Made by a program: the position numbers and the translations under genes. A stretch of DNA of 64,000 nt from an uncultured delta proteobacterium (lineage in GTDB: Bacteria > Chloroflexota > Dehalococcoidia > Dehalococcoidales > BS750m-G39): assembly GCA_963739245.1 (NCBI GenBank), contig CAVTZP010000002.1, positions 633-64,632 of the forward strand, written 5' to 3'. Positions 21,839 through 58,093 of this stretch are shown piece by piece. Within the stretch, counting starts at the first letter, position 1. The number at the start of each line of letters is the position of its first letter. The notes beneath the pieces were generated by a model that ran no database searches, was not told where the DNA came from, and worked only from the letters and a program-made list of their open reading frames with translations.

Positions 21839-22711
21839 ATGATTGCGGATTTCGAATATTTTGCTCCCAAAACAGTTAAGGAAGCCCTTTCCCTACTTTC
21901 ACAGTATAAGGATGCCAAAATAATTGCCGGCGGGCAATCGCTGCTGGTGGTCTTAAAGCAACGGCTGCTTGCCCTGGAATATTTGATTGATATCAAAGGC
22001 ATATCGGCTCTAGACTATATTAACTACGAAGACGGCAGAGATTTGAGAATCGGAGCATTGACCGTACATCGAGCCATAGAGAAATCACCAGCGATTCAAA
22101 AGTATTTCCAGGTGCTCAGCGAGATGGAGAGAAACGTGGCCACAGTACAGACCCGAAACTGGGGCACAATTGGTGGCAACCTTTGCCATGGCGACCCCGC
22201 TGGCGACCCGGCCCCAGTTTTCATTGTGTTAAATGCCAAATTGAAGTTAGCCAGCTTGGGTGGGGAGAGAATCATTGACATGGAGGAGTTTTCCAAAGAC
22301 TATCTTGAGGTGGCCCTTGAACCAGGTGAGATGCTTACTGAGATTCAGGTGCCGACTCCGTCACCTCACACTGGTACTGCCCATGACAAGCTAATGGTGA
22401 TGAAAGGAGACATGGGAATTGTCGGGGCAGCGGTGTCAATCACTTTGAGTGGAAGGGATGGCGTTTGCAAGGATGTCCGAATAGCGCTCAGCAACACTGC
22501 TTCTGTACCTTTGAGGGTTAAAGAAGCAGAAAAGGTACTAATAGGAAAAACAATCAATGACAGCTTGCTTATTGAGGCTGCCGAGGTAGCCTCGACAGAG
22601 GCTAGCCCTCCTGTTGACGTCCATGGTTCGGCAGAATACAGACAGGAGATGGTGAAGGTCTTTGTCAGGCGGGTAGCAGGAATAGCTCTGGAAAGAGCCA
22701 AAGCGGCATAG
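21839..22711 (+). CDS. Xanthine dehydrogenase family FAD-binding subunit (CoxM/CutM type)
   Basis: IAGGQSL, IGAL, QTRN.GTIGGNLCH.DPA.D; 290 aa with no Fe-S insertion. Confidence 0.93.
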   Translation: MIADFEYFAPKTVKEALSLLSQYKDAKIIAGGQSLLVVLKQRLLALEYLIDIKGISALDYINYEDGRDLRIGALTVHRAIEKSPAIQKYFQVLSEMERNVATVQTRNWGTIGGNLCHGDPAGDPAPVFIVLNAKLKLASLGGERIIDMEEFSKDYLEVALEPGEMLTEIQVPTPSPHTGTAHDKLMVMKGDMGIVGAAVSITLSGRDGVCKDVRIALSNTASVPLRVKEAEKVLIGKTINDSLLIEAAEVASTEASPPVDVHGSAEYRQEMVKVFVRRVAGIALERAKAA

Positions 22712-22730
22712 TTGTCTGAGGAGGGTAGAT

Positions 22731-23216
22731 ATGAAAGACGAACTGAAGGAATTAAAGTTAACCGTTAACGGCAAGCCTTATGAGTTCAGGGTGAAACCAA
22801 GGACCTTACTTGTTGACCTGCTGAGGCAGGAGCTGAAGCTGACGGGCACCAAGATAGGTTGCCTTGAGAGTGCTTGCGGTGCCTGCACCGTTAATATTGA
22901 CGGCAAGGCGGTCAGGTCGTGTTCCGTACTGGCGTTGCAGACCAATGGTCGCAAAGTTACCACCATCGAAGGTTTGGCTGACGGGGATAAGCTGCACCCT
23001 ATTCAGCAGGCGATGATCGACCATGGCGCTATAGAGTGCGGATTCTGCACCCCGGGGATGGTGATGTCAGCGAAGGCGTTACTGGATGAGAACCCCAAGC
23101 CAACCCGTGAGGAGGTAAGAGAAGCGATACAGGGTAATCTGTGTGCTGATGAAGGCTATGTGAAATATATCGAGGCTATAGAAATAGCTGCGGAAAAGAT
23201 ACGAGGAGGTCAGTAG
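22731..23216 (+). CDS. Xanthine dehydrogenase family [2Fe-2S] subunit (CoxS/HcrC type)
   Basis: TGTKIGCLESACGACTV...RSC, TTIEGL, CGFCTPG; last Cys motif altered to GNLCADEGY. Confidence 0.93.
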   Translation: MKDELKELKLTVNGKPYEFRVKPRTLLVDLLRQELKLTGTKIGCLESACGACTVNIDGKAVRSCSVLALQTNGRKVTTIEGLADGDKLHPIQQAMIDHGAIECGFCTPGMVMSAKALLDENPKPTREEVREAIQGNLCADEGYVKYIEAIEIAAEKIRGGQ

Positions 23217-23217
23217 A

Positions 23218-25575
23218 ATGGGTGAGACTTTTGGGGAATATTCGATAATAGGAAAACCGATACCCCGAGTGGAGGCTAAGTTAAAGGTTACTGGTCAGGC
23301 AAAGTATGCCGCTGATTATGAATTAGCCGATATGCTGTGGGGTCAGATTAAGAGAAGCCCTTATCCTCACGCCAGGATACTAAATATTGACACCAGCAAG
23401 GCTGAGAGGTTACCCGGCGTAAAAGCGGTGACTACCGGCAAGGACTTTGGCGGTTTCAAGTGGGGCTGGAGCGGGCCGACTCGCGATGAAGAGCCCCTGG
23501 CAGTAAAAAAGGTACGCTACCTATATGAAGGGGTAGCGGCAGTGGCCGCTATTGATGAGGATATAGCTAATGAGGCCTGCGACCTCATTGAGGTTGAGTG
23601 GGAGCCACTCCCCGGCGTCTTTGATGTCTTTGAGGCAATGCAGGAAGGAGCACCCCTGGTTCATGAGAACCGCCCGGGGAACATTTGCGTTGAGTATCAT
23701 TGGGCCTTTGGTGACATGGACAAGGCTTTTGCTGAGTCTTACCTAGTTCGGGAAGATACCTTCCAGACCCCACGCATGGCCAAAGGATATCTAGAATCAC
23801 CGGCAGTGGTTGCCTACTGGCCCGATTCTAATCATGTCGTCTATATCGGGGCAAAAGGAAGCCCATATTTTCCATACCGGATTCTATCCCGGTGCTTTAA
23901 TTTGCCGCTCAGCAATGTTCGGATAATAACACCCTTTATCGGCTCCGACTTTGGTGGCACTAAGAATGATATGACGCCAGCTGATTACTCGGCAGTCATG
24001 CTCGCCAAGAAGACCGGCCGACCGGTGAAGATTGTGACCAGCCAGTTTGATGTCCTCACTACCGACCTGCGGCGTCACCCGATGTGGCTCACGGTAAAGA
24101 CGGGGGTTACCAAGGACGGCATACTAAAGGCTACATATCTCAAGGCTGTTGCCGACGGGGGAGCCTATACCCGAATGAGCCCGCTCACGATGATGCTTAC
24201 CGGCTGTCTTACGACCCTACCCTATAAGCTGCCAAATTACAAATATGATTGCTACAACTATTTTACCAATAACCCGAGTTCGGCCGCCATGAGAGGACAT
24301 GGACTATACCACAGCCGGTTTGCCGCTGATGTTCAGCTAGACATGATAGCCGAAGAGCTTGGGCTAGACCCGGTGGAGATAAGGCTAAAGAATGCCATTG
24401 AAAACCCTGAGCCGGGTAAGGTATATGAGACAATCAACGAGGTACATATGGCGACCTGCGGGGTAAAGGAATGCATTGAAAAGGTTGCCGAGGCGGTAGA
24501 CTGGGAAAAAAGAAGAAAGACGAAAAAAGAAGATGGTTATAAGGCCTATGGTATTGGCTTTGCCGCGGCAACATATAACAGCGGGACAAAGCTGAGTGCA
24601 CATAACGCTTGTGCCGCTATCATAAGGGTATGCGAGGACGGAAGTGTCAATTATCTGACCGGCGCCACTGACGTCGGGCAGGGGTCAGACACAATAATGT
24701 GCGCTATTGCCGCCGAGGTGCTCGGTATAAAACTAGAGGACATAGACCTGAAGAGGGTAGATACAGCATTTACCCCGGTTGACCCGGGAAGCTACGGCAG
24801 CCGGGTTACTGTGCTTGCCGGTCAGGCGGCAATAAATGCCGCCCTAGATGCCAAACGGCAGCTCCTCGAGGTTGCAGCACAGCAGTTTGGCGTAAAACCG
24901 GAAGATGTTGAGATTAAGAACAAGCAGGCCTTTGTCAAGTCAAATCCTGATAGGAATATGCCCTGGGAGAGGTTAGTGAGAACCGCCTGCTACGATACGC
25001 CGGGTAAGGTCATCATCGGCCGCGGCTATTCAACCCAGGGAATATCGCTATTAGGCCTGGCCGATTTCAGTAAGGGTGTCGGTGACATTGGAACCAATTA
25101 TAGCTTTACCGCCCAGGCCGTCGAGGTGGAGGTAGATGTGGAGACAGGCGTGGTAAAATGCACCGATAATAGCGTGATCGCCCACGACTGCGGCTTCCCA
25201 CTAAATACTCAGGCGGTAGAAACTCAAGTCCAGGGTGGGTCATACCACCAGGGGGTTTCTGCTGCCTTGTATGAGGAATTCAAGATGGACAAAGGGCAAA
25301 CCCTTAACCCCAATCTTGTCGACTACCAGCGACCTCGCGCCAATGAAGCACCGATGACACAGGTGATACACGTGGTAACCAATGACCCCTATGGCCCATT
25401 TGGGGCTAAAGAGGCCAGCGAGGGGAGTTGTTGTTCGGCACCACCGGCGGTGATTAATGCCATTTATAATGCTACCGGGGTCTGGATTAATAACCTCCCC
25501 GCCCAACCGGAGAAGGTCTTCTGGGCGCTAAAAGCCAAAAAAGAGGAAAAGAAGGAGAAGAAAAGGGGAAAATAG
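23218..25575 (+). CDS. Xanthine dehydrogenase family molybdopterin-binding subunit, 4-hydroxybenzoyl-CoA reductase alpha (HcrA)-like
   Basis: KVTG.AKYA.D, RSP.PHARI, AMRGHG, PGSYGSRVT, GPFGAKEASEG (HcrA-type motifs as recalled). Confidence 0.85.
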   Translation: MGETFGEYSIIGKPIPRVEAKLKVTGQAKYAADYELADMLWGQIKRSPYPHARILNIDTSKAERLPGVKAVTTGKDFGGFKWGWSGPTRDEEPLAVKKVRYLYEGVAAVAAIDEDIANEACDLIEVEWEPLPGVFDVFEAMQEGAPLVHENRPGNICVEYHWAFGDMDKAFAESYLVREDTFQTPRMAKGYLESPAVVAYWPDSNHVVYIGAKGSPYFPYRILSRCFNLPLSNVRIITPFIGSDFGGTKNDMTPADYSAVMLAKKTGRPVKIVTSQFDVLTTDLRRHPMWLTVKTGVTKDGILKATYLKAVADGGAYTRMSPLTMMLTGCLTTLPYKLPNYKYDCYNYFTNNPSSAAMRGHGLYHSRFAADVQLDMIAEELGLDPVEIRLKNAIENPEPGKVYETINEVHMATCGVKECIEKVAEAVDWEKRRKTKKEDGYKAYGIGFAAATYNSGTKLSAHNACAAIIRVCEDGSVNYLTGATDVGQGSDTIMCAIAAEVLGIKLEDIDLKRVDTAFTPVDPGSYGSRVTVLAGQAAINAALDAKRQLLEVAAQQFGVKPEDVEIKNKQAFVKSNPDRNMPWERLVRTACYDTPGKVIIGRGYSTQGISLLGLADFSKGVGDIGTNYSFTAQAVEVEVDVETGVVKCTDNSVIAHDCGFPLNTQAVETQVQGGSYHQGVSAALYEEFKMDKGQTLNPNLVDYQRPRANEAPMTQVIHVVTNDPYGPFGAKEASEGSCCSAPPAVINAIYNATGVWINNLPAQPEKVFWALKAKKEEKKEKKRGK

Positions 25576-25597: not shown

Positions 25598-26335
25598 TTA
25601 TTGCTTGAGTGCCGTTGGTGAGCAAACGGGGCAATTCTCGTTTTTCTTGATGTCATAAATCTGGAACTTGATATCATCACCGTTAAAGAGCAGCAGTTTT
25701 CCGGCTAGTGCCGGGCGGCGACCAATAAGCAGTTTGATAGCTTCCAGAGCTTGCAGGTTGGCTATAATTGCCGGCGTCACTCCGAGAACGCCGAGCCCGC
25801 TGGTACCTTCAGGGCAAAGACATGCCAGGCATGGTGTTTGTCCGGGGATGATGGTGGTAATCATGCCCCTCAGGCGTGAGACACCAGCATAAATGTAGGG
25901 AATCTTTAGCTTAACACACGCCGCATTCACTATGAGCCGGGTGGTTACATTATCTGTGCCGTCAAGTACTACCTGGGCTCCATTGATGACACCAAGGACG
26001 TTGTCTTCTGTTATCTTGGTAAAGACGGGGGTGATTTGGACTAGGGGATTTAGTTTGGATAGCTTTCTTTGAGCGACTATTACCTTCTTCTCTCCGATGT
26101 CCTCTTCCCAGTAGAGAATCTGCCGATTCAAATCAGACAGTTCAACAATATCAAAATCAACGATGGTAATGTGTCCGACCCCAGCCGCCGTCAGGTAGGT
26201 TCCCGAGGCACAGCCTAGCCCGCCTACACCAACTATAGTAGCATGGGCGTTTTTTAACTTGTTTTGCCCTTCTTCACCAAAATCTGGGATTATCAGTTGC
26301 CGATTATATCTAACAAGTTCCTTTTGCTCAAGCAT
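25598..26335 (-). CDS. ThiF/MoeB/HesA family E1-like adenylyltransferase
   Basis: RYNRQL, GVGGLG, D...SDLNRQ, CLAC and CPVC zinc pairs; start reassigned to ATG 26335. Confidence 0.92.
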   Translation of the reverse strand: MLEQKELVRYNRQLIIPDFGEEGQNKLKNAHATIVGVGGLGCASGTYLTAAGVGHITIVDFDIVELSDLNRQILYWEEDIGEKKVIVAQRKLSKLNPLVQITPVFTKITEDNVLGVINGAQVVLDGTDNVTTRLIVNAACVKLKIPYIYAGVSRLRGMITTIIPGQTPCLACLCPEGTSGLGVLGVTPAIIANLQALEAIKLLIGRRPALAGKLLLFNGDDIKFQIYDIKKNENCPVCSPTALKQ

Positions 26336-26352
26336 TTTTTCTCCGCCGATGC

Positions 26353-26730
26353 CTAGCCATCCCAGCGCCACAGCATCTTGACCTTCACTTCGTCGCCGTC
26401 TCTTAGCATTGTATCAAGACCAGCCGGCAATGATAAATAATTTTTACCGTTAACAAAGACGTCGTAGTCAAAGTCAAGTTGATTAGTTTCTTGGACGACG
26501 GGGTCAAAATCGACATTAGCCTGCTTATATCGATGTGACAGCTCGGCGAGCAGTGCTTTCAGGGTGTTACCTGCCACCTCTATTTCAATAACCCCCCTTT
26601 CCCTAGCCTCAGGCCAGGGTGCATAAAGCCAGGGCATAATAATGGTGAGCAGACCCTCTCGGGTTACTTCCTTAGCAGGATTAATTATGATTATCAATTC
26701 CGAGAAACCGGGCATTACCGCCGCTTTCAC
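26353..26730 (-). CDS. MoaD/ThiS-like ubiquitin-fold protein with N-terminal extension and non-canonical C-terminus
   Basis: G.TL..LL.EL, VFVNG......GLDT.L.DGDEV pattern; ends WRWDG; GTG 26730 after GGAGG. Confidence 0.72.
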   Translation of the reverse strand: MKAAVMPGFSELIIIINPAKEVTREGLLTIIMPWLYAPWPEARERGVIEIEVAGNTLKALLAELSHRYKQANVDFDPVVQETNQLDFDYDVFVNGKNYLSLPAGLDTMLRDGDEVKVKMLWRWDG

Positions 26731-26861
26731 ACCCACCTCCGGTACAGTTCATTCGCCAAGCGTCTGGCTTCTCCCCCACCAAGGCTGTGTCCCATAATTG
26801 GTGGAGATTCTTCGACCATATCATATATCCTATGGTAATGAGCGTCAATTACTTTAGACAT
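26727..26861 (-). CDS. Possible 44-aa peptide or gene remnant
   Basis: MSKVIDAHYHRIYDMVEESPPIMGHSLGGGEARRLANELYRRWV; GGAG upstream; stop overlaps the next start (GTGA). Confidence 0.3.
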   Translation of the reverse strand: MSKVIDAHYHRIYDMVEESPPIMGHSLGGGEARRLANELYRRWV

Positions 26862-27716: not shown

Positions 27717-28976
27717 CTACTTTGGCCACGCCGGCTTGGGGTATTCAAAGTCTGCGGTAAGCTTGGTGGCAGACCATGGACCTCCGCCGACGACTTCATA
27801 TAGACCATTCTGCCACTGGCCAACCTCCCCTTGATGGGTTTCCTTGGCCAGAAGCCCGCCGCCGCCACCGATTGTCGTGTAATAGGTATCTCCCAGAAGC
27901 GTAGTGAAATGCCCGGTAGCGTATATATCCCTTATCGCCTTCTGGTCAAGGGCCCCGGCCTTCTCTATAGCCTGCTTCCAGAAATCCAATGCCCCATAAA
28001 AGAGGTCTGACCCCCACCCATTCCAGACATCCTCAGGCGCGTTGCCGTAGAGTTTTACAAATAATGTCTCCATCTCGGGAGACTGTTTCCGGTTCCAGGT
28101 AGCCCAAGCACATACCCCCTCCACCGCCGGGCCAAACGCGGTATGGAAGAAACCGTAGTTGCCTCCAGGTCCCAATATAAAAGCCTTGGGGTTGTAGCCA
28201 AGGGCTATCGACGTACCGGTAACCGGCATAATCTGGTCGGGATAGGCAAAGCAGCAGAAGGCATCGGCACCAGACGCCTGAGCATCCAGTATCACGGGGG
28301 CAAAGTCCTTAAGGCCGGGGGGAAGGCTCACGTTGCCCAGGACCTTAATCCCCACCCTGGCAAATTCGTTACCGGCAACACCGGCGTACTCAATGCCATG
28401 GAGGTCGGCAATATAGGTCACATATGCCGTCTTGGCGCCGGCTTTGGCAAGCATGTCAGCCCAAACCGGAACCTCGTACCAGTCGGAAAAACTCAGGTTG
28501 ATGAACACATAGGGCAGGCTGGGGAGCATGTCCTTCATCGTGGTAGCACCACCCTCAAAGGTCGGCAGTACATACCCCAACTTATTGGCGATAGGGGCCT
28601 GAGCAAAAAGCATGGCGGTGCTATTAGAAGACCATATAGAGTCAACCTTGTCCTCAACGATGAGCTTCTCCGTTAGCCTCACCGCCGTGCCCACGTCAGA
28701 TTTATCATCATAGATGAGTGTCTCTACGGGCAATTTCTTGCCGTACTCGGTCACAAATATCCCGCCGGCGGCATTGACCTCGGGAACAAATGCCTTATAG
28801 ATTGGCCCGAATCCCGAAACCTCAATCGCAGTCAGTGGGCCGGAGAGGGACCTTGCCATGCCAACAACGATTTTATCCTTGACTGGCGCTTTTGGGGCAC
28901 AGGCAGAGCACAAAGGCAATACTACCAGTGCTACCAACACTATGGCTATCAAACTAAAAAATACCTTTTTGTTCAC
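27717..28976 (-). CDS. ABC transporter substrate-binding lipoprotein, branched-chain amino acid (LivK-like) family
   Basis: Hydrophobic signal ending LCSAC, SLSGP, YDDKSD...A..L.EKLI..DKVD; GTG 28976 after AGGAG. Confidence 0.88.
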   Translation of the reverse strand: MNKKVFFSLIAIVLVALVVLPLCSACAPKAPVKDKIVVGMARSLSGPLTAIEVSGFGPIYKAFVPEVNAAGGIFVTEYGKKLPVETLIYDDKSDVGTAVRLTEKLIVEDKVDSIWSSNSTAMLFAQAPIANKLGYVLPTFEGGATTMKDMLPSLPYVFINLSFSDWYEVPVWADMLAKAGAKTAYVTYIADLHGIEYAGVAGNEFARVGIKVLGNVSLPPGLKDFAPVILDAQASGADAFCCFAYPDQIMPVTGTSIALGYNPKAFILGPGGNYGFFHTAFGPAVEGVCAWATWNRKQSPEMETLFVKLYGNAPEDVWNGWGSDLFYGALDFWKQAIEKAGALDQKAIRDIYATGHFTTLLGDTYYTTIGGGGGLLAKETHQGEVGQWQNGLYEVVGGGPWSATKLTADFEYPKPAWPK

Positions 28977-29128
28977 TTGTTTCTCCTTTCTAAAGATTCT
29001 TACCGTTATATTAGACTTCTTATCATATAATCTCACATATCTCGGCCCTCCTCTTCATTATGATATCAGCTCTAGTAGCTTAGTAGACTATGAGGTGAGT
29101 TAAAGACTAAGGCATTACCTCCCCTTTG

Positions 29129-30160
29129 TCAAGCAACCTGAAGCAATATTTTGATGTTATCCTCCTTACTGGTAACCAGCTTTTCAAACCCCATCTCTAC
29201 CGCATCCTTAAGCGGCACTTTTGCCGTAATTAAGCGGCGGGGGTCAATTCTTTTATCCGCTAGCAAAGCGATAGCCATCTTCCCCTCGTGGACATAAATG
29301 GGGCTACCGACAATAGTTTTCTGATTAAACATCACGCTCTGAAAGTGAATCGAGCTCGGCTTTTCAAAGACCCCCACAATCACGATGGTCCCACCTTTTC
29401 GAGCTAGGTCTATAGCTAGCTGGGGGGTAGCCGGGTGGCCAACACACTCAAAGGATATGTCCACACCTAATCCATCGGTCAGACTGGCAACCTGCTTCAC
29501 CGGCTCACCATCGTCAGGGTTGATAAACGCCGTAGCTCCCATAGCCAAGGCAATCTCCCCTCTACGCTTAATCTTATCCGCAACATAAACTTCGGCTGCC
29601 CCGGCCGCCCTGGCGGCCAATAGAACGCAAAGACCGATAGTACCCGAGCCGACAATTGCCACCCTATCCCCGGGACGGACATTACCCTGGCGAACAGCGT
29701 GAATGGCTACTGCCAAAGGCTCTACCAGAGCCCCAACTTCATCGGACACCGAATCGGGAAGCTTATAAACGGCGTAACTGGGAATGACCACATACTCAGC
29801 CATACAGCCATCCACGGTCAGACCGGTGAAACCCGCCTTCAGGCAAATATTATACATGGCTCTTTTACAAAAAAAACATTCGCCGCAGAACCAATAACCG
29901 ACTCCGGTTACCCGCTCGCCAACCTTAAAGTCTGTCACCCCTTTACCCACCTCGGCGACTCTGCCCGCAAACTCATGCCCTAAAGTCAGCGGCACCTTGT
30001 CGACAGCAATCATGCCCGGACCAGATTCATATTCCTTCAAGTCGCTACCGCAGATACCAGCCAGGTTAACTTTCACCTTTACCTGCCCCGGCCCCGGAGA
30101 CGGTTCAGGTACATCTTCATAGCGAAGGTCTTTTCTACCATACCACCTTAAGGCTTTCAT
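29129..30160 (-). CDS. Zinc-dependent alcohol dehydrogenase (2,3-butanediol/sorbitol dehydrogenase family)
   Basis: GICGSD, GHEF.G, C..C..C.......C structural Zn, G.GTIG, VEPLAVA.HA. Confidence 0.93.
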   Translation of the reverse strand: MKALRWYGRKDLRYEDVPEPSPGPGQVKVKVNLAGICGSDLKEYESGPGMIAVDKVPLTLGHEFAGRVAEVGKGVTDFKVGERVTGVGYWFCGECFFCKRAMYNICLKAGFTGLTVDGCMAEYVVIPSYAVYKLPDSVSDEVGALVEPLAVAIHAVRQGNVRPGDRVAIVGSGTIGLCVLLAARAAGAAEVYVADKIKRRGEIALAMGATAFINPDDGEPVKQVASLTDGLGVDISFECVGHPATPQLAIDLARKGGTIVIVGVFEKPSSIHFQSVMFNQKTIVGSPIYVHEGKMAIALLADKRIDPRRLITAKVPLKDAVEMGFEKLVTSKEDNIKILLQVA

Positions 30161-30171
30161 ATCTCACCCTC

Positions 30172-32529
30172 CTATTTACAGGCTAGTATTGCTCGTTTAA
30201 CCAGCGTCTTGGCTATCTGAATCTTGTACCGGTTGTTTATCACTGGACAGGTGTCGGTGACTACCGCATTAGCCGCACCTTCGGCAGTTGAATCGTTAAT
30301 CGATTTACCTCTTATGTACTCCTCTGCCCTGGTTGCCCGGTAGGGGTTGTTATACACCGCGTTCAGGCATATCCTGGCTTTCTTAACTACCCCCTTCTCA
30401 CTTTCTATGGCGGCGGCACAGTTAACTACCGGGAAGTCTATCGACTTCCTGAGGGCAAACTTAATGAACTTGGACCTCGTGCTAGCACCAGGTATCGGAA
30501 CTTCAATTTCCAGAACTATCTCATCGTCATCCAGGACTGTCGCCTTATCGCCGGCCACAGTGAAAAACCTTTCTGCCTCAATAACCCGTTTTGTGGTCTT
30601 GATTTTAGCCCCCAAAGCTATCAAAGCCGGGGCCATGTCTGATGAGCTAACGGCCACACAGCCGCAATTGAAACATCTATTGGCTTCGGTCTCGACGGCA
30701 CTCAAGCCCAGACTGCTAACCTCCTCAATATCTATGCTCTTAATTCTCTTTGCTACCGGGAGTTCCGGGGTTTTAACCCGGCTTGTTTTCTTAAGGTATG
30801 AACTGTTGAACTTCTCCGGAAGCTTAACCGCCTCGCTGTCTTTATATCGGGTTCCCGTGCCTCCAAGATATTGGTCTATGGAGCTTGCCGCTCTCCTCCC
30901 ACTAGCTATGGCGGCAACAACTGTTGATGGGCCGGTGACGAAATCCCCACCGGCAAAGACATTCTTGCCCAAGGAATGCGTAGCGGTATCCACCTTCAGC
31001 CGTCCGTTTTTGTCCAAGAACTCGGCAGGGATAGTTGAGGTGTCTGGTTCTTCCCCGATTGCCTTTATTACCGCATCAAACTCAGTGGTAAATTCCGAGC
31101 CTTCTACCGGCACGGGCTGAGGTCTTCCCGTCTCGTCTAAAGGCCCCAGCCGCATTCTGGTGCACTTAAGGACTATCTGGCTACCCTTCTTCGACGCTTC
31201 CACGGGCAGGGTAAGGAACTGGATTCTAATGCCTTCCTCCTCTGCCCTGTTAACCTCCTCCTTTACCGCGGGCATCTCCGCCTTGCTGCGCCGATAGATA
31301 ATCACCGGTTCCGCTCCTAGCCTCAGCAGCGTTCTGGCAACATCTATGGCGGCGTTGCCACCGCCTATCACTGCGATTTTCTTTCCCGGCAGTTCTCTAA
31401 CCCCAAGATTCGAATTTCTCAGGAACTCCAAGCCAGATATCATCAATTTCTCGCCCTTTACCCCTGATAGCCTTTCTTTCCCGGCTCCGCAGGCCATGAA
31501 GACAGCATCAAAGCGTTTCATAAGCTCTTCCACTTTGATATCCTCACCGACATTAGCCTTAAGCTTGAATTGGATTCCGGTGCCCTCAAGGGCTTTGACC
31601 TGCCGCCGGACAATGTCCTTAGGCAGCCGGTACGGCGGTATACCATAGGTGAGCAGCCCGCCCGCTTCTTGCATCTGGTCAAAGACAGTTACGCCGTAGC
31701 CAAGCCTCCTGAGGTAATATGCCGCCGAAAGCCCGGCCGGCCCAGAACCGACGATAGCCACGCTCTTTTTGACCTCACTTTGCGGAGATTTAAATATCTC
31801 GTCCATATTCTCCAGGACATAATCACCAATGAACCTCTCGGCGCCCTTAATGGATATTGGTTCGTCAAAATTACCCCGATTGCACTCGCCCTCGCAGAAA
31901 TGGGGGCAGACCCTCCCCGTTATTGCCGGGATGGGGTTGAAATCAAGCAGTATTCTGGCGGCGCCAGCCAGGTCGCCGTCCCTGATTTTACTCAGGTAGG
32001 AGGGTATATCCACGCTAGCCGGGCAATCAGTGGCGCAAGGCGTGCCATTTACCCTGGTGCCGCCGAATATGGAATGGTATCTCCCATCCCCGGTTAAAGC
32101 GTAGCACACCCTGCCCCCCTTCCTCAGGCAGTAGAACCTATTATCAGGAACCCAGTAGTACCAGCACCGGTTACTCTGACAGATGTTACCGCCGATAGTA
32201 CCCATCTCCCTGATATGTGGCGAGGCGGTGCTACGAGCGGCCTCAGCCAATATGGCGCACTTTTCTTTTACCGTCTTGTCCCGGGCGATGTCCTCGAGCC
32301 GAGTCAGGGCGCCAAGCCTTAATATTTTGCCTTCTTCCCTGATATAATCCAGGCCGGAAATGGTCTTGATATTGACTAGGACATCCGGGTATTCCGGCAA
32401 TATCTCATCCTTCATCTGGCCCAACAGGTCAGTACCACCGGCGATGACCCTCGCCTTTTCCCCGTAGTCCTTGAGGACTGAGGTTGCCTCTTCTATTGAA
32501 CCGGCGTTTATATGTTTGAATCTCTTCAT
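30172..32529 (-). CDS. XDH-family FAD/[4Fe-4S] subunit (HcrB/PaoB-like) carrying an internal GltD/NfnB-like Fe-S flavoprotein module
   Basis: N-terminal AGGTDL, SPHIR.MGTIGGN; internal CPA.VDIP, GRVCPH.CE..C, GSGPAGL, GIPPYRLP, GGGNAAID, FAGGD; C-terminal CVA...SD.APAL, K...R..IDF; start reassigned to ATG 32529. Confidence 0.9.
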   Translation of the reverse strand: MKRFKHINAGSIEEATSVLKDYGEKARVIAGGTDLLGQMKDEILPEYPDVLVNIKTISGLDYIREEGKILRLGALTRLEDIARDKTVKEKCAILAEAARSTASPHIREMGTIGGNICQSNRCWYYWVPDNRFYCLRKGGRVCYALTGDGRYHSIFGGTRVNGTPCATDCPASVDIPSYLSKIRDGDLAGAARILLDFNPIPAITGRVCPHFCEGECNRGNFDEPISIKGAERFIGDYVLENMDEIFKSPQSEVKKSVAIVGSGPAGLSAAYYLRRLGYGVTVFDQMQEAGGLLTYGIPPYRLPKDIVRRQVKALEGTGIQFKLKANVGEDIKVEELMKRFDAVFMACGAGKERLSGVKGEKLMISGLEFLRNSNLGVRELPGKKIAVIGGGNAAIDVARTLLRLGAEPVIIYRRSKAEMPAVKEEVNRAEEEGIRIQFLTLPVEASKKGSQIVLKCTRMRLGPLDETGRPQPVPVEGSEFTTEFDAVIKAIGEEPDTSTIPAEFLDKNGRLKVDTATHSLGKNVFAGGDFVTGPSTVVAAIASGRRAASSIDQYLGGTGTRYKDSEAVKLPEKFNSSYLKKTSRVKTPELPVAKRIKSIDIEEVSSLGLSAVETEANRCFNCGCVAVSSSDMAPALIALGAKIKTTKRVIEAERFFTVAGDKATVLDDDEIVLEIEVPIPGASTRSKFIKFALRKSIDFPVVNCAAAIESEKGVVKKARICLNAVYNNPYRATRAEEYIRGKSINDSTAEGAANAVVTDTCPVINNRYKIQIAKTLVKRAILACK

Positions 32530-38105: not shown

Positions 38106-39167
38106 GTGGCAGAACTCTTGTCCAATACTATCAAAATGCTCAAGCCTCTGGATAAGGGGGCAATGGACAGCGCCCGCGCCAGGCAAGACACCCTGACCAA
38201 GCCGCAGGGCAGTCTGGGCCGGCTGGAGGAGCTGTCCATCAAGCTGGCGGGCATTCAGGGTAAACCTATCCCCCAAATCAGACATAAGGTCATTTTTACC
38301 CTGGCTGGCGACCATGGGGTTGTGGCGGAAGGGGTAAGTGCCTACCCACAGGAGGTTACCGCCCAAATGATTTATAACTTTTTGAGGGGCGGGGCGGGGA
38401 TAAATGTGCTGGCTCGCCAGGTTGGGGCAAGGGTTGTCGTCGTTGACATGGGGGTGGCAGCTAAGCTTGAGCCGCACCCCCAGCTTATATCCAGGAAGAT
38501 TGCCCCCGGCACCCGGGATATGTTTTTACGCCCAGCGATGACTCAAGAGCAGGCAGTGAGGGCAATAGAGGCCGGGATTGAGTTGGTGGGAGGTGAGGTG
38601 ACCAAGGGTCTTGATATCGTTGGCACCGGTGATATGGGCATCGGCAATACCACTGCCAGCAGCGCTATCTGCGCGGTGATGACGGGGAAATCGGTAGCCG
38701 AGGTGGTGGGCAGGGGCACGGGGATAGACGATAGGCAGCTCAAGCACAAGGTGGATGTGATAAGCCAGGCCCTAGCCGTGAACCGCCCCGACCCTAAAAA
38801 GCCCTTAGATGTGCTGGCCAAGGTGGGAGGCTTTGAGATTGGCGGGCTGGTGGGGGTGATGCTGGCCGCGGCTGCTTACCGCATACCGATAGTTTTAGAC
38901 GGCTTTATCTCCGGGGCCGCCGCCCTTATCGCAGTGGCGATGGCACCTAAACTTAAGGATTTTCTTATCGCTGCCCATGTCTCGGCAGAACCCGGGCATA
39001 AGGTGGTGCTCAGGCACCTGAGGCTTAAGCCGCTGCTTAATCTGGGTATGCGCTTGGGTGAAGGCAGCGGTGCTGTCCTGGGAATATTTCTGGCTGAGGC
39101 CGCCGCCAGGATTCTGGCTGAGATGTCAACCTTCGCTGAAGCCGGAGTATCAGAAAAGGAGAAATAA
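38106..39167 (+). CDS. cobT: Nicotinate-nucleotide--dimethylbenzimidazole phosphoribosyltransferase
   Basis: LTKP.GSLGRLE, AGDHGV, GDMGIGNTT, GGFEI, LDGFI, MRLGEGSG. Confidence 0.97.
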   Translation: MAELLSNTIKMLKPLDKGAMDSARARQDTLTKPQGSLGRLEELSIKLAGIQGKPIPQIRHKVIFTLAGDHGVVAEGVSAYPQEVTAQMIYNFLRGGAGINVLARQVGARVVVVDMGVAAKLEPHPQLISRKIAPGTRDMFLRPAMTQEQAVRAIEAGIELVGGEVTKGLDIVGTGDMGIGNTTASSAICAVMTGKSVAEVVGRGTGIDDRQLKHKVDVISQALAVNRPDPKKPLDVLAKVGGFEIGGLVGVMLAAAAYRIPIVLDGFISGAAALIAVAMAPKLKDFLIAAHVSAEPGHKVVLRHLRLKPLLNLGMRLGEGSGAVLGIFLAEAAARILAEMSTFAEAGVSEKEK

Positions 39168-39935
39168 TTGGGGTTCTTGGCGGCGCTAAGATTTTTAACC
39201 ATTATACCCTTGCCCGGGCGGCGCGAGATTAGCCCCGAGGAAGTGGGACGCTCCATTGTTTACTTCCCCTTGGTCGGGGTTATCATTGGACTCATTCTGG
39301 CTGGCTTGAACTGGCTACTCGGTCTTGGCCTGCCTTCAGCATTAGTTAATGTACTGCTGGTCGTTTCCCTGGTAGTAATCAGCGGCGGTCTGCACCTTGA
39401 CGGTTTCGTTGATACCTGCGACGGCATGGTTGGACACAAGACAGTGGCGCAGAGATTGCGGGTGATGAAAGATAGCCGTGCTGGTGCCTTTGGCATAATC
39501 GGCGTCTCCTGCCTCTTGCTGGTGAAATATGTCTCACTAAATAGTGTGCCGGCTTGCTGGCTGATGCCAACCCTGGTGCTTATGGCGGTGGTAAGTCGCT
39601 GGGCAATGGTCTACGCTGTCTTTGCCTATCCCTATGCCAAACCATCAGGGCTGGGAAGGGTATTTAAGCAGGGGACAAATCGGACAAGGTTTATCGTAGC
39701 AACAGTGGTTGCTTTAGTGGTGGCAGTGATTCTGGCACAACTCGCTGGTTTGGTTATAATGTTTAGTACCTGGGTTATAGTCATGGCTACGGCTTTCTAT
39801 CTCAAGGGCAGGTTTGGCGGGCTCACCGGTGACACCTATGGGGCAATAAATGAGATAGCTGAGGTCTCAGTCCTTATTCTGGTTTGTCTGCTGGCTCACT
39901 TCCAGTGGCCAGGTGGAAATATCTTTTGGGGATAA
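39168..39935 (+). CDS. cobS: Adenosylcobinamide-GDP ribazoletransferase
   Basis: A.RFLT..P, GGLHLDG..DT.DG, MKDSR.GAFG, GG.TGD.YGA..E. Confidence 0.96.
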   Translation: MGFLAALRFLTIIPLPGRREISPEEVGRSIVYFPLVGVIIGLILAGLNWLLGLGLPSALVNVLLVVSLVVISGGLHLDGFVDTCDGMVGHKTVAQRLRVMKDSRAGAFGIIGVSCLLLVKYVSLNSVPACWLMPTLVLMAVVSRWAMVYAVFAYPYAKPSGLGRVFKQGTNRTRFIVATVVALVVAVILAQLAGLVIMFSTWVIVMATAFYLKGRFGGLTGDTYGAINEIAEVSVLILVCLLAHFQWPGGNIFWG

Positions 39936-48212: not shown

Positions 48213-49337
48213 ATGTATTCTACTAAAGATGGAAGATTGCAGGGAGAAGCTGGTTGGGCGAAACTTGCTTTCTTCTGGTTCATCTTATTTCTATCATACA
48301 AGTGCACAAGAAGGTGTAGCTATTGTTATGCTTTTAATCAAGTTGGTGATGATAATAAGATGGAAATGGATGAGAATACATTTTCAAGGTTATTAGAGTG
48401 GATCCCAGAAGTCTGGAAAGTTAATAACGTTAAAGTGAACGCCATTAGCTTTCTTGGTGGGGAACCATTATTGAGAACGGATAGAATTAAGAAAATTATG
48501 GATTCTGTCTATAAAAATACTGACGGCATGCAGGGAGATGTTTATACAAATGGTGATTTAATAGATTCTGTAAATTGGGATGACCTTGAAGATATCCAAT
48601 GGATGGTAACAAATATTACAGATATTAGTATTGAAGAACTATCGAGAAGAATGAAGATAATCAGCGAAAGGTCAAATGTTAAAGGTCAAACAATAACAGC
48701 TACCTTGGACGATTATAACTTAGAGAGAGTTCTTGATATAACAAGATTCGGAATAGAAAATGGATATCGCTTGAGATACTATAGGAATTTATACCGAGGA
48801 TTGGATACTGAATATAAGAAAATATTATTGAAGAAATATCACGAAGTATGTGATTTATTGGAAAATTATATTATTAAGGGATACGATGTCCAGACTACTT
48901 TCTTGTTTGATACTTTAATTCCTTCCTGGAATCTTGAATCTTCTCCATATCTTTGCGGGAAAAGTATTGCCACAGTATATCCCGATGGAACGGTTGGGCC
49001 ATGTCTTAGAAACCAATCATTTAAAACCGGAACAATATTTGACGCAAATCCTTTAAGTAAAATTCAATGTGACACATTTCTTTATGATTTTAGAAAACCA
49101 GACATCCCGGATGAATGTAGGGAGTGTGAATCTAAAACCGCCTGCCAGGGAGGATGCCCGTTTGATAAGTTGTTGTTGACCGGTACTACATCAGGAAAAT
49201 CTGTTGTATGTGATATACACAAAGAAATTATTCCAAGATTAAGATATTTAGATAAATTAAAAAACGATATGAAAAACCCAGTACATAGAGGTGATAAAAA
49301 TGAGATACGCAGAGACAGGATACAACCTAGAAATTGA
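48213..49337 (+). CDS. Radical SAM protein with SPASM domain
   Basis: CTRRCSYC, GGEPLL, C......PDG.V.PC, CRECESKTACQGGCP...C; start uncertain (48174 GTG or 48213 ATG). Confidence 0.9.
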   Translation: MYSTKDGRLQGEAGWAKLAFFWFILFLSYKCTRRCSYCYAFNQVGDDNKMEMDENTFSRLLEWIPEVWKVNNVKVNAISFLGGEPLLRTDRIKKIMDSVYKNTDGMQGDVYTNGDLIDSVNWDDLEDIQWMVTNITDISIEELSRRMKIISERSNVKGQTITATLDDYNLERVLDITRFGIENGYRLRYYRNLYRGLDTEYKKILLKKYHEVCDLLENYIIKGYDVQTTFLFDTLIPSWNLESSPYLCGKSIATVYPDGTVGPCLRNQSFKTGTIFDANPLSKIQCDTFLYDFRKPDIPDECRECESKTACQGGCPFDKLLLTGTTSGKSVVCDIHKEIIPRLRYLDKLKNDMKNPVHRGDKNEIRRDRIQPRN

Positions 49338-51288
49338 CCTATCCCGAGGAACCATTGAGAGGGTAGCAACTGACCCGAAATTAACCGAACTTCACCTTGG
49401 CGGGTTAGGTACCAGCGTCAAGATGCACTGGGATAGGGTTCCCCCTGAAACTAAACCATTTGATGCCGAGAATCTGCTAATATTCAGCGCCGGTCTTTTA
49501 TGCGGCACACCAGCTTTCAGCTGCAATCGTACCGTTGTTACCTTCGTTTCTCCTCAGTCGGAGTTATTAGCATATCCAATGATGGGGGGATTCTGGGCAC
49601 CAGAACTGAAATTTGCCGGTTATGACAAAGTGGTCATTCAGGGCAAGTCCCCCAAGTGGGTTTATTTGTGGATAAACGATGACAAGGTAGAAATCCGTGA
49701 TGCCTCTCATTTAAAGGGCAAAGGCGCTCTTGAAACTGTAGAGCTTATTCGACAGGAGCTGAATGAGCCGAAAGCCCAGGTGGCAGCTATTGGCCTGGCC
49801 GGTGAAAATCGGGTCTTCACGGCTTCCATCGAGCAGGGCAGGTCCAGCGCCAGCCGACTCGGAGGAGGCGCCGTTATGGGGGACAAAAAATTAAAGGCGA
49901 TAGCTGTTCGTGGAACAAAAGACGTCAATCTTGCCCGAGGGGCTGAATTCATGGAGCATATGAATGCTGTGCTGGAATATATAAAGTTCCGAAATGCAAA
50001 TCCCATTCCAAACGTAATGACCATTTTATCCGGGATTGGGTCGCCACAGGAGATGAAAAACACTGATGAGAAGTGGCACACTGAAAGTTTCATGTGGGGA
50101 AATGCCCGTGTTCGGAGAAGAGACTTCTGGACCAAGGAACACGAAGAGGAATGGACGACGACTCAATTAAGTGCGATAAAGCGGCTAATAAGTTGCTATA
50201 ACTGTCCGCAGCAATGCGGAGCATTAATTTCCTACAAGGATGTTCCAAATTACATGGCGAAATGCTTCGGGAAACTTACCTATTCAATGGCGGCCCAGGT
50301 AGACAGGCTGGATTTTAACTTTAGAATCCTTCAGCGTGCTACGGAGTATGGAGTGGACTCATTCTCAACCCCGCAAATTTTGGCCTTCGGTGTCGAGCTC
50401 TATGAAGCCGGCATTCTAACTGACCAGGACATGCCAGGATTTCCGTCCGATAACGAGGGGAGATTTTTCTGGTTGCTTGACCGGGTTGCCCGGCGGGAAG
50501 GAATTGGAGATATTCTGGCCGACGGCACTTATTGGGCGGCCAAAAAGATTGGCAAGGGCGCAGAAGTATTTGCTCATAATATCATCAAGAAACACGAGCA
50601 GCTTCCTCTCAAGCTGGGAACGCTGGATCCCCTTTATTTCCTTATGTATTCTACCAACGAGAAGATAAGCATTACCCAAATTGAAGGGAATTGGCCCCAG
50701 GCGGCTTTCCCGACGAGGGAGGAGAGAGAAGAGTTTGTAAAGGATTGGCCCCAGCTTCCTGATGAAAAGTTTAAGCAATATTTACTGGACTGGGAACCAC
50801 GGGGAGATCACGGGATACCATATTTCCCAACTCCTGAAATGTGCTGCGAAATTGTGGATTGGATGGAGACGCTGCACAACATTGATGACGCCATCGGATT
50901 GTGCGCCGGTATGGGATCATTTTGCTTAAAGCCTCCCTATCATATACACAATTACCCGAAAATAATCTCGGCGGCGACTGGGATGGATATAGATGAAGCC
51001 GGACTAAAGAAAATAGTCAGGAGGAGCCGTAATTTACACAGAGCATTTAATGTAAAAAGAGGCATGAGGAGAGCTGATGAGAAGCCGCCTGAAGACCATT
51101 GGAAAAAAAGATATCCCGAGCTCGAAGAAAAACTCCTAGATACGTATTACAAATTCAAGGGATGGAATAATGACGGTATTCCTACTAAAGAAACTTTACG
51201 GGAATTAGATTTGGGTTATGTTGCGGAAGACTTAGAACAGAGAGGGATACTAAAAAACGGCCAATCCGACCACCCCGACCATAAATAG
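49300..51288 (+). CDS. bamB: Tungsten aldehyde-oxidoreductase family, class II benzoyl-CoA reductase catalytic subunit BamB paralog
   Basis: MRYAETGY.LE.DL, MMGGFWAPELK, SIEQGRSSASR, SPQEMK..DEKWHTE, SCYNCP..C, KCF, KKHEQLPLKL; E251, H260 and C322 fall at the residue numbers I recall for Geobacter BamB. Confidence 0.9.
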   Translation: MRYAETGYNLEIDLSRGTIERVATDPKLTELHLGGLGTSVKMHWDRVPPETKPFDAENLLIFSAGLLCGTPAFSCNRTVVTFVSPQSELLAYPMMGGFWAPELKFAGYDKVVIQGKSPKWVYLWINDDKVEIRDASHLKGKGALETVELIRQELNEPKAQVAAIGLAGENRVFTASIEQGRSSASRLGGGAVMGDKKLKAIAVRGTKDVNLARGAEFMEHMNAVLEYIKFRNANPIPNVMTILSGIGSPQEMKNTDEKWHTESFMWGNARVRRRDFWTKEHEEEWTTTQLSAIKRLISCYNCPQQCGALISYKDVPNYMAKCFGKLTYSMAAQVDRLDFNFRILQRATEYGVDSFSTPQILAFGVELYEAGILTDQDMPGFPSDNEGRFFWLLDRVARREGIGDILADGTYWAAKKIGKGAEVFAHNIIKKHEQLPLKLGTLDPLYFLMYSTNEKISITQIEGNWPQAAFPTREEREEFVKDWPQLPDEKFKQYLLDWEPRGDHGIPYFPTPEMCCEIVDWMETLHNIDDAIGLCAGMGSFCLKPPYHIHNYPKIISAATGMDIDEAGLKKIVRRSRNLHRAFNVKRGMRRADEKPPEDHWKKRYPELEEKLLDTYYKFKGWNNDGIPTKETLRELDLGYVAEDLEQRGILKNGQSDHPDHK

Positions 51289-54272: not shown

Positions 54273-54875
54273 CTCAGCTTCGAAAGAAGGTGAGGAAGAC
54301 TTTAGAGCTTCAATAAGGACGTAGGCGGCTTGCAGTGCCTCTGTAGGGCAAAGCGGAAAACATTCTTTGCAGTTCCAGCATTCCTTGGAGGCTATCTCCG
54401 GAATGAAACTTATCTCTCGCCTTGTTCCTCTGTCGACAAAGCCGATAGCGTTCTTCTTCTTGACCTCAGCACAGTATCTAACACATAGACCACAAAGAAT
54501 GCAAAATGAGTGCTCTTTTTCAAAATGGGCTTTATTTGCTCCATACTCTTGAGCCAAATCCTGCAATACCCCGGCTTCTGGAGCATGAGCTAGCACCAGC
54601 TCCAAAAGCATTTTGCGAATTTTATCTACCTTCTCCGACCTGGTTCTTACCACCAAATTTTCTTCAACGGGGTAAAGACAGGCAGCAACGAGATTTGTCC
54701 TACCGCGAGTCTCTACTTCTACTGTGCAAATTCGGCAGGCCCCATAAGGTTCTAATTTCTCGTGGTGGCAAAGTGTAGGAATAGATATCCCCGCACTTTG
54801 GGCTGCCTCCAAAATGGTCATCCCTTCCCTGGCTTTAACTTCTCTTCCATCAATCTGTAAAATGATTTCACTCAT
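54237..54875 (-). CDS. bamI: BamI / NuoG N-terminal-like Fe-S subunit
   Basis: IPTLCHH..L.P.GACR.C.VE, CILCGLCVRYC, CWNCKECFPLCPT; position after bamH. Confidence 0.82.
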   Translation of the reverse strand: MSEIILQIDGREVKAREGMTILEAAQSAGISIPTLCHHEKLEPYGACRICTVEVETRGRTNLVAACLYPVEENLVVRTRSEKVDKIRKMLLELVLAHAPEAGVLQDLAQEYGANKAHFEKEHSFCILCGLCVRYCAEVKKKNAIGFVDRGTRREISFIPEIASKECWNCKECFPLCPTEALQAAYVLIEALKSSSPSFEAESEEGTFSLRLS

Positions 54876-56800: not shown

Positions 56801-56809
56801 AATTTTCCC

Positions 56810-57262
56810 CTAATCATAGTTTTTTAACACGTCTCCTGTCTTGGCTGGTACCATCTTACCGTGATACTTCCCATCAACTTCCATCACCGGTCCTAAAGCA
56901 CAGCAGCCGAGACAGTTAACAGTCTCCAGGCTAAACTTTAAATCCGAGTCCGTTTCGCCAGGTCTAATTCCAATCAGGTCTTGAACCGTGTCAAGGACTC
57001 GCGGCGCACCACGAACATGACAGGCAGTACCCATACAAATATGAATTTCATGACGTCCTTTAGGAACTAAACTAAAGGCTTTATAAAATGTAGCTATATG
57101 CTGTATCCGGCTTAAAGGCACTTGTAATTTCTTACTGACCTTCTCTAATACTTCCTTGGGAAGCCAGCGATTTTCGCTCTGAATCTCCAGTAATATTTGA
57201 ATTAGCGAATCGGCTTTGCCCTGATGTTTATCAATAATCTGCTCGATTTTACCCTCATCCAT
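56810..57262 (-). CDS. bamG: BamG / NuoE-like [2Fe-2S] subunit
   Basis: ATFY..F, C.GTACHVRG, V.CLGCC..GP. Confidence 0.88.
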   Translation of the reverse strand: MDEGKIEQIIDKHQGKADSLIQILLEIQSENRWLPKEVLEKVSKKLQVPLSRIQHIATFYKAFSLVPKGRHEIHICMGTACHVRGAPRVLDTVQDLIGIRPGETDSDLKFSLETVNCLGCCALGPVMEVDGKYHGKMVPAKTGDVLKNYD

Positions 57263-57291
57263 AGCTGCTGTCCTAACCCTCTTCTTTCACT

Positions 57292-58059: not shown

Positions 58060-58093
58060 GTCTTAGCTCACTCCTAAGGTAATCCCTCTTTGT

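Follow-up and report, generated by a model that had tools for sequence, protein, structure and literature searches.

A circularly permuted GltD/NfnB-type cassette nested inside the iron-sulfur loop of a molybdoenzyme FAD subunit from an uncultured Dehalococcoidia-like bacterium

Within the xanthine dehydrogenase (XDH, or xanthine oxidase) family of molybdoenzymes, the reductive dehydroxylases UcdCFO and XdhD-YgfM use NAD(P)H at an ordinary flavin adenine dinucleotide (FAD) subunit (PMC12507026 for XdhD-YgfM). HcrB, a subunit of HcrCAB from Thauera aromatica (1RM6/1SB3), takes its electrons from an external ferredoxin. In 2025, UxdFOC was described as the urolithin 10-dehydroxylase of Enterocloster asparagiformis, citroniae and pacaense (PMC12658268). 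UxdFOC expressed in Clostridium sporogenes dehydroxylates 10-hydroxy urolithins in vivo, its subunit UxdC has extra 4Fe-4S and FAD/NAD(P) domains with two FADs predicted by AlphaFold3, and the authors suggest that 4Fe-4S clusters connect these two flavins (PMC12658268). GltD-like modules also occur in electron-bifurcating complexes. Residues 102-565 of StnC form such a module within a NuoG-like protein, with a linear path from the FAD/NADPH site to clusters C7, C6 and C5 and onward to StnAB, the seat of bifurcation (PMC10482914). For Csac NfnABC, bifurcation is reported to take place at the B1-FMN-C1 flavobicluster of the BC core and not at the NfnL-like FAD (PMC11829005). Here we analyze a window of 64,000 nucleotides (GenBank contig CAVTZP010000002.1, positions 633 to 64,632) from a soil Dehalococcoidia-like bacterium, which encodes a three-gene molybdenum enzyme. 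Its beta (FAD) subunit (30172..32529 of the window, minus strand) carries a GltD-like module nested inside a [4Fe-4S] loop of the HcrB type.

The beta reading frame is unbroken over 785 amino acids plus a stop; the plus-strand reading of 30172-32529 is full of stops and was rejected. The two Pfam domains that make up an XDH-family medium subunit are both found in beta, FAD_binding_5 at residues 3-120 (E 1.2e-36) and CO_deh_flav_C at 689-782 (E 3.7e-15), and are parted by an insert with Fer4_20 at 163-241 (E 7.5e-22) and Pyr_redox_2 at 256-544 (E 3e-32), a domain order that confirms the nesting. When we spliced out the insert (about 466 residues, approximately 158-623, nucleotides 30661-32058) and aligned the remaining host part to solved [4Fe-4S]-bearing medium subunits, it matched the Methylobacillus aldehyde oxidase subunit 5y6q_B (residues 10-325), HcrB (1rm6_B) and PaoB end to end, with C122, C134, C142 and C624 landing on the four loop cysteines of 5y6q_B and HcrB. 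This alignment bears out the proposal of an initial annotation, made from the sequence without database searches and with no strand given, that a module of about 466 residues sits between the third and fourth host cysteines. The motifs listed there are all present, in the host (NRC122WYY, YC134LRK, VC142YA, H152SIFGG and GC624VAVSSSD) as well as in the insert. In an alignment of 70 full-length family members from at least five phyla, to which the conservation counts below refer, the host FAD motifs AGGTDL and TIGGN are conserved and C624, S630 and D631 are invariant. An additional cysteine before the insert, C117, has a counterpart in HcrB, but since just 64 of the 70 sequences conserve it, a role as cluster ligand is improbable.

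The insert corresponds to the two-cluster FAD/NAD(P)H unit of GltD, dihydropyrimidine dehydrogenase (DPD) and NfnB, as the initial annotation had recognized. It contains the cluster motifs PC165ATDC169P, GRVC208PHFC212EGEC216, AE231RFIGD and EANRC619FNC622, and the flavin and nucleotide motifs GSGPAGL (FAD Rossmann), GIPPYR301LP, GGGNAAID (NADPH Rossmann) and FAGGD. BLASTP against Escherichia coli GltD matched insert residues 162-555 to GltD 51-470 (36% identity) and residues 583-623 to GltD 12-51, the stretch that in GltD lies directly upstream of the residue aligned to insert position 162; the intervening linker (557-582) had no homology to GltD in this search. The first ~50 residues of GltD, which hold the first CxxC of RCxxCG-xPxCxxxCP, have thus moved behind the C-terminus of the module, so that the insert starts with PxCxxxCP, closes with the displaced RCxxCG(C) and is nested in an iron-sulfur host. 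These alignments show the insert to be a GltD/NfnB-type cassette in circularly permuted form, and because of the permutation both of its ends lie at the distal cluster. Of the cysteines at its C-terminal end, C619 and C622 are part of the cassette and not of the host domain. By alignment to NfnB/DPD-type modules, StnC and Bfu-type NfnA, together with the published ligands of Csac NfnA (C108, C147, C151 and K170; PMC11829005), the distal cassette cluster would be held by C619, C622, C165 and C216 and the proximal one by C169, C208, C212 and E231. In the junction C619-x-x-C622-G-C624, two cysteines would then serve the distal cassette cluster and the next one the host cluster. All 12 predicted Cys/Glu ligands (C122, C134, C142, C624, C165, C169, C208, C212, C216, E231, C619 and C622) are invariant in 70 of 70 sequences, as is R301, so the Glu ligand and the Arg of the xxRLP motif are retained as the initial annotation had stated. 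All features of an NfnB-type module (FAD, NADPH site, two [4Fe-4S] clusters, 3Cys+Glu ligation and the N5 Arg) are accounted for in the insert.

An AlphaFold2 (AF2) model of beta built from the 70-sequence alignment gave one confident body (pLDDT 90.3, pTM 0.85), and its sole run with pLDDT below 50, residues 563-570, lies inside the linker. Ranked by fold, the best matches were NfnA of T. sibiricus and C. saccharolyticus (Bfu type), StnC, NfnL/NfnB, GltD and DPD; the cassette core scored 344-384 bits against NfnB 4ylf_B and NfnA 9n5u_A and 9bov_A. By sequence and fold combined, the closest solved relatives are Bfu-type NfnA (9n5u_A, 9bov_A) and StnC (8oh5_C), which share the permuted topology. 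The cassettes of Sporomusa ovata StnABC (8OH5) and Bfu-type NfnA (9BOV, 9N5U) likewise lack the N-terminal CxxC, end in RCxxCGC and are nested in an iron-sulfur protein. Their host is a NuoG/FdhF-like scaffold on a NuoEF-like bifurcating core, whereas here the host is a molybdenum hydroxylase subunit, and the operon, which consists of gamma-alpha-beta and an alcohol dehydrogenase (ADH) alone, has no NuoE/NuoF-like bifurcating core. The fourth proximal ligand also differs, being K170 in 9bov_A and 8oh5_C and E231 here. NfnB/NfnL (4YLF, 5JCA) and the N-terminal modules of GltD and DPD have the same fold (Foldseek TM 0.78 to NfnL 5jca_L), the two [4Fe-4S] clusters and the sites for FAD and NADPH, but are unpermuted and free-standing. 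The permutation and the kinship of the insert with the StnC and Bfu-type NfnA cassettes are new here; the part of the UxdFOC paper available to us mentions neither (PMC12658268).

The permuted cassette also occurs in three more proteins of the same genome, all with the YRR nucleotide-binding motif discussed below, which makes four hosts in 1.35 Mb (the other loci are at contig C5, 124187-125584, and contig C7, 35247-36641 and 12324-13703). Two are HdrA-like proteins of 1472 and 1113 amino acids, in which the cassette starts ..PPCxxxCP.. and ends ..RCLxCGVC..; in the third, a NuoF-like protein encoded beside a formate-dehydrogenase-like Mo/W subunit, the cassette is fused at the C-terminus. Because the same cassette is found in HdrA-like proteins, a NuoF fusion and StnC, it behaves as a reusable NADPH plug-in, a redox building block that always docks at the same point, CxxCGC.

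The nested design is real and widespread, and its kind was first noted in 2025 in a gut-bacterial enzyme. A scan of species genomes yielded 80 loci with colinear homologues (about 40-82% identity) in Dehalococcoidia and other Chloroflexota, Actinomycetota (Gaiellales, Thermoleophilia), SAR324, Thermodesulfobacteriota (Desulfatiglans, Desulfobacteraceae, Syntrophorhabdales) and gut or rumen Bacillota (Hungatella, Mogibacterium), placing the architecture in at least five phyla. At least 120 further protein clusters in a large protein collection have the same four Pfam domains. Among 201 genomes sampled across the source class, at least three hold a full-length copy, a lower bound given that few candidates were scored per genome, and the own genome (1.35 Mb, 94% complete) holds one copy of the nested beta. 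The family is thus phylogenetically wide but sparse. An identical or 97%-identical protein is found on other contigs, and contigs from other studies' metagenomes (peat, sediment) span both junctions at ~97% identity without indels or joints, a single peat contig covering 30313-34911. Across the 80 loci, the conserved unit is gamma-alpha-beta or beta-gamma-alpha alone, and the neighbourhood survey found no conserved partner past these three core genes; what surrounds them varies and includes ABC, TRAP and major facilitator superfamily (MFS) transporters, short-chain dehydrogenases/reductases, ADHs and molybdenum cofactor (Moco) maturation genes. At seven loci, tandem or duplicated gamma-alpha-beta units or extra alpha/gamma pairs stand beside one nested beta, which hints at substrate diversification through swapping of the Mo subunit.

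The family divides by its nucleotide-binding motif. In this beta, the second Rossmann strand is followed by Y412-R413-R414, the same residues as in NADPH-dependent GltD, NfnB, StnC and Csac NfnA. This YRR motif is found in 38 of the 70 sequences, and 31 of 70 have (C/S/T)LE instead. A maximum-likelihood tree of the 70 sequences parts the YRR and xLE groups on one branch (SH-aLRT 99), with this beta in the YRR clade and all gut Clostridia members, among them P0176 of E. asparagiformis, in the xLE clade. An acidic residue at this Rossmann position is the classical NADH signature. The YRR clade, including this beta, would accordingly be NADPH-type and the xLE clade NADH-type, and the single branch suggests that nucleotide preference may have switched once in the family. 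Horizontal transfer within the family is likely, because each clade mixes several phyla. The split predicts NADPH- and NADH-specific subfamilies.

The initial annotation knew of no characterised enzyme with this architecture, a statement outdated since the description of UxdFOC in November 2025 (PMC12658268). UxdFOC has the same gene order as here: a 2Fe-2S subunit, a Mo subunit and a coenzyme subunit with extra 4Fe-4S and FAD/NAD(P) domains. Our closest comparison is P0176 (788 amino acids), a colinear homologue of this beta at 44% identity in an F-O-C operon. Because there is no ucd operon within 10 kb of P0176, it is probably a paralogue of UxdC and not UxdC itself, and E. asparagiformis probably holds more than one enzyme of the nested design. 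The locus (DSM 15981, GG657592.1:66856-89222) reads TetR, MFS transporter, 2Fe-2S subunit, Mo subunit, nested beta with CLE, NifU and a MocA-like gene. In contrast to the 44% identity of beta, the alpha subunits of the two enzymes are only 27% identical; conservation thus lies in the subunit for electron input and diversification in the catalytic one, and the substrate therefore presumably differs from that of the Enterocloster enzyme. The Uxd substrate is a free polyphenol, whereas the context here suggests an aryl-CoA. Two other candidates for a precedent were rejected: UcdCFO, which was the first of the urolithin dehydroxylases, lacks both the [4Fe-4S] loop and the cassette, and E. coli YgfK, considered as a trans-acting partner of XdhD, is a separate DPD-like reductase, XdhD-YgfM using NADH directly (PMC12507026).

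We propose that this beta belongs to a cytoplasmic, HcrCAB-like molybdoenzyme of the xanthine oxidase family and acts as a linear NADPH wire for the reductive dehydroxylation of an aromatic acid, a reading to which we assign a probability of about 0.6. Electrons would pass from NADPH to the cassette FAD, then through the proximal [4Fe-4S] cluster (three Cys and E231), the distal [4Fe-4S] cluster, the host [4Fe-4S] cluster, the host FAD and the two [2Fe-2S] clusters to the Mo. The cassette would stand in for the external ferredoxin of 4-hydroxybenzoyl-CoA reductase (4-HBCR) and make the enzyme a self-contained NADPH-dependent reductase. Less certain are the reductive direction and the chemistry, in which an aromatic acid, probably in the form of a CoA ester, may lose a hydroxyl and the product may pass into the class II (BamB) benzoyl-CoA reductase pathway, whose genes lie nearby. 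The nested cassettes of the closest solved relatives, StnC and Bfu-type NfnA, are described as linear inputs for NADPH electrons (PMC10482914, PMC11829005). The YRR motif supports NADPH as the predicted donor. For the reductive direction, comparison offers the HcrB-type loop, with its four cysteines in the same positions, the shared hcrCAB gene order, the reductive activity of UxdFOC and the affinity of alpha, whose best solved relative is HcrA (1rm6_A, E 1.7e-60, 208 bits), followed by CoxL, QorL and aldehyde oxidase. HcrCAB shares with this locus a context of anaerobic aromatic metabolism, and HcrB differs in having no nested cassette. A PaaK-type ligase and a BamB homologue provide the aromatic context here, as would suit an aryl-CoA dehydroxylase that supplies a class II benzoyl-CoA reductase.

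Several observations weigh against this proposal. The Hcr equivalog cutoffs of NCBIfam are far from reached (bits versus cutoff: TIGR03194, HcrA, 306/995; TIGR03195, 144/405; TIGR03193, HcrC-type, 142/258), and alpha is just 27% identical even to the alpha of the Enterocloster paralogue. Medium subunits with a [4Fe-4S] loop are also found in oxidative aldehyde oxidoreductases, to which the top match of the host part, 5y6q_B, and PaoB both belong, and alpha keeps the VGIGE Glu used by hydroxylases. Core neighbours vary widely among the 80 loci, mostly without CoA ligases, and the secondary-alcohol-type ADH of the operon has no obvious role in a 4-HBCR-like step.

The strongest alternative, although we consider it unlikely, is that the wire runs in reverse in an oxidative hydroxylase or aldehyde oxidoreductase of the PaoABC or Methylobacillus aldehyde oxidase type. 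Electrons would then move from the Mo through the host FAD and the three [4Fe-4S] clusters to the cassette FAD and NADP+, and the acid product would be activated by the PaaK-type ligase. The host part is indeed nearer to 5y6q_B (137 bits) than to HcrB (95 bits) and aligns over all four loop cysteines with the aldehyde oxidoreductases (5Y6Q; E. coli PaoABC, 5G5G); the retained catalytic-Glu motif VGIGE, the ADH in the operon and the adjoining CoA ligase fit this direction as well. These oxidative enzymes, of which PaoABC is periplasmic, lack the cassette, however, and alpha resembles HcrA, its best relative, more than it resembles them. Where members of the family reduce pyridine nucleotides, the reaction takes place directly at the canonical FAD domain, which would leave the extra cassette unneeded, and the ADH is of the polyol/secondary-alcohol type and not an aryl-alcohol dehydrogenase. 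GltD and DPD use NADPH as donor. In the solved relatives StnC and Bfu-type NfnA, the cassette is described as oxidizing NADPH as an input (PMC10482914, PMC11829005), and the sole tested member of the nested design, UxdFOC, is reductive (PMC12658268).

We regard as improbable, more so than the oxidative direction, that the NfnB-like FAD is a true bifurcating or confurcating centre sending low-potential electrons to the Mo for a Birch-type dehydroxylation. The initial annotation had inferred an NAD(P)H-coupled Mo enzyme with two flavins, a natural inference that we retain, and had added possible electron bifurcation, which our analysis does not support, because its hallmarks are non-diagnostic and no NfnA-like partner lies in the conserved core or on this contig. 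Such a reaction could take two forms, with NADPH oxidation split between two branches or NADPH combined with reduced ferredoxin. In its favour, both the Glu-ligated proximal cluster and the N5 Arg of NfnB are kept and invariant, and the Glu stands where the non-bifurcating StnC/NfnA cassettes have Lys. The chemistry of 4-HBCR is moreover said, after Boll and colleagues, to take about -500 mV at the Mo. NfnB shares the Glu ligand and the YRLP Arg with this beta, but these residues are not diagnostic of bifurcation, because the Glu is also found in non-bifurcating E. coli GltD, at the E231 position (NIERY), and the Arg in StnC (R239), where bifurcation does not occur at this FAD (PMC10482914). 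From the sequence topology, the cassette flavin is predicted to have just one exit, the two-cluster wire. In a linear chain, a strongly crossed flavin could not send its first electron via a very low-potential proximal cluster, as would follow from the published potentials of NfnI. Bifurcation by NfnAB requires a second electron branch, from NfnA, and NfnB bifurcates only with this partner; across the 80 loci, no NfnA-like, [2Fe-2S]/a-FAD or ferredoxin gene is conserved with the gamma-alpha-beta core, and this contig has no NfnA-like gene. The genome has three NfnA-type (PF10418) genes, all of them outside this contig, and one neighbours a canonical NfnB-like gene of 530 amino acids. Half of the family has apparently moved from NADPH-type to NADH-type binding, as a plain input module would. 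Together, these findings favour a simple wire for NADPH input over electron bifurcation, and we consider it improbable that the cassette flavin is an internal generator of low-potential electrons, whether it bifurcates or confurcates with ferredoxin or delivers single electrons in some other energised way. If it were, the enzyme would carry out Birch-type aryl dehydroxylation from NADPH without ATP, and the xanthine oxidase family would gain its first bifurcating member; our literature searches found nothing relevant on a fused or bifurcating 4-HBCR. Finally, an assembly chimera of two unrelated genes, or a pseudogene, has a negligible chance of being correct: no point supports it, and the unbroken frame, the identical or 97%-identical protein on other contigs, the 70 colinear homologues across phyla, the independent metagenome contigs that cross both junctions and the high-confidence single-body AF2 model all speak against it.

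The genes and segments around this linear-wire candidate are listed in Table 1. The minus-strand genes are closely packed in the order gamma-alpha-beta-ADH, with a spacer of 5 nt between gamma and alpha and the beta ATG (at 32529) one base after the alpha stop. Domains of the three-subunit xanthine oxidase/CO dehydrogenase family were found in gamma, alpha and beta, those of alpha comprising the a/b hammerhead and two MoCo-binding domains (PF01315, PF02738, PF20256). The top PDB match of the ADH is (R,R)-butanediol dehydrogenase (6ie0_A, 227 bits), and profile and PDB matches led us to reject an aryl-alcohol or Had-type dehydrogenase. An ADH homologue lies directly 3' of beta in four of the nearest relatives and near the operon at three further loci. 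The PaaK-type ligase scored 220 bits against phenylacetate-CoA ligase 4r1l_A in the PDB. A PDB search gave no ligand clue for the solute-binding protein, just weak matches to urea-binding proteins.

Table 1. Features of the nested beta subunit and of its surroundings (window coordinates)
Feature	Coordinates	Strand	Evidence
Beta host N-part, residues 1-157: FAD_binding_5, first three loop Cys (C122/C134/C142), then H152SIFGG	32059..32529	-	
Cassette core, residues 158-556, equivalent to GltD 51-470: FAD and NADPH sites, two [4Fe-4S]	30862..32058	-	
Linker, residues 557-582, between the GltD C-terminus of origin and the displaced N-terminal segment	30784..30861	-	
Displaced GltD N-terminal segment, residues 583-623, ending EANRC619FNC622G	30661..30783	-	
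Beta host C-part, residues 624-785 and stop: C624, rest of FAD domain, CO_deh_flav_C	30172..30660	-	
Gamma subunit, two [2Fe-2S], HcrC/CoxS type, 167 aa	34990..35493	-	Pfam Fer2_2 3.2e-27 and Fer2
Alpha subunit, molybdopterin (Moco), 817 aa	32531..34984	-	Pfam Ald_Xan_dh_C, MoCoBD_1, MoCoBD_2
Zn-dependent medium-chain dehydrogenase (ADH), secondary-alcohol/polyol type, 343 aa, final operon gene	29129..30160	-	Pfam ADH_N, ADH_zinc_N
ABC-type solute-binding protein (Peripla_BP_6)	27717..29036	-	Pfam 1.2e-37
PaaK-family aryl/acyl-CoA ligase, divergent, 467 aa	35535..36938	+	NCBIfam PaaK 221-224 bits, under cutoff
BamB homologue (class II benzoyl-CoA reductase catalytic subunit), outside operon	49291..51288	+	1046 bits to 4z3w_A

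The BamB homologue, 17 kb from the beta operon, matches Geobacter metallireducens BamB (4z3w_A) over its full length and is followed at 52239-59137 by HdrD-, NuoF- (with a 2Fe-2S N-domain), HoxU/NuoG- and MvhD/HdrA-like genes. The two stretches, 49291-51288 and 52239-59137, together resemble an island for class II benzoyl-CoA reductase, and the Dehalococcoidia-like genome that holds them is very small. On the plus strand, 21839-25575 contains a second operon of the XDH family, this one of the ordinary type, which encodes a CoxM-like FAD subunit of 290 amino acids without cluster loop or cassette, a 2Fe-2S subunit and a Mo subunit (785 amino acids). Between the two Mo-enzyme operons, at 25598-26736 on the minus strand, are a ThiF/MoeB-like E1 gene and a small ThiS/MoaD-like gene, which probably function in Moco sulfur transfer. 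Just past the CoA ligase are cobT (DBI_PRT) and cobS, genes for attachment of the cobalamin lower ligand (38106-39935, plus strand).

Overall, the enzyme described here is a distant new member of the Uxd-like kind and falls in the predicted NADPH-type clade. Its architecture illustrates how a molybdenum reductase of the ferredoxin type could become self-sufficient in strict anaerobes: a ready-made NADPH module is plugged into the very loop at which electrons from ferredoxin normally arrive. For uncultured Dehalococcoidia, it provides a candidate NADPH-dependent dehydroxylase that would act upstream of class II benzoyl-CoA reductase.

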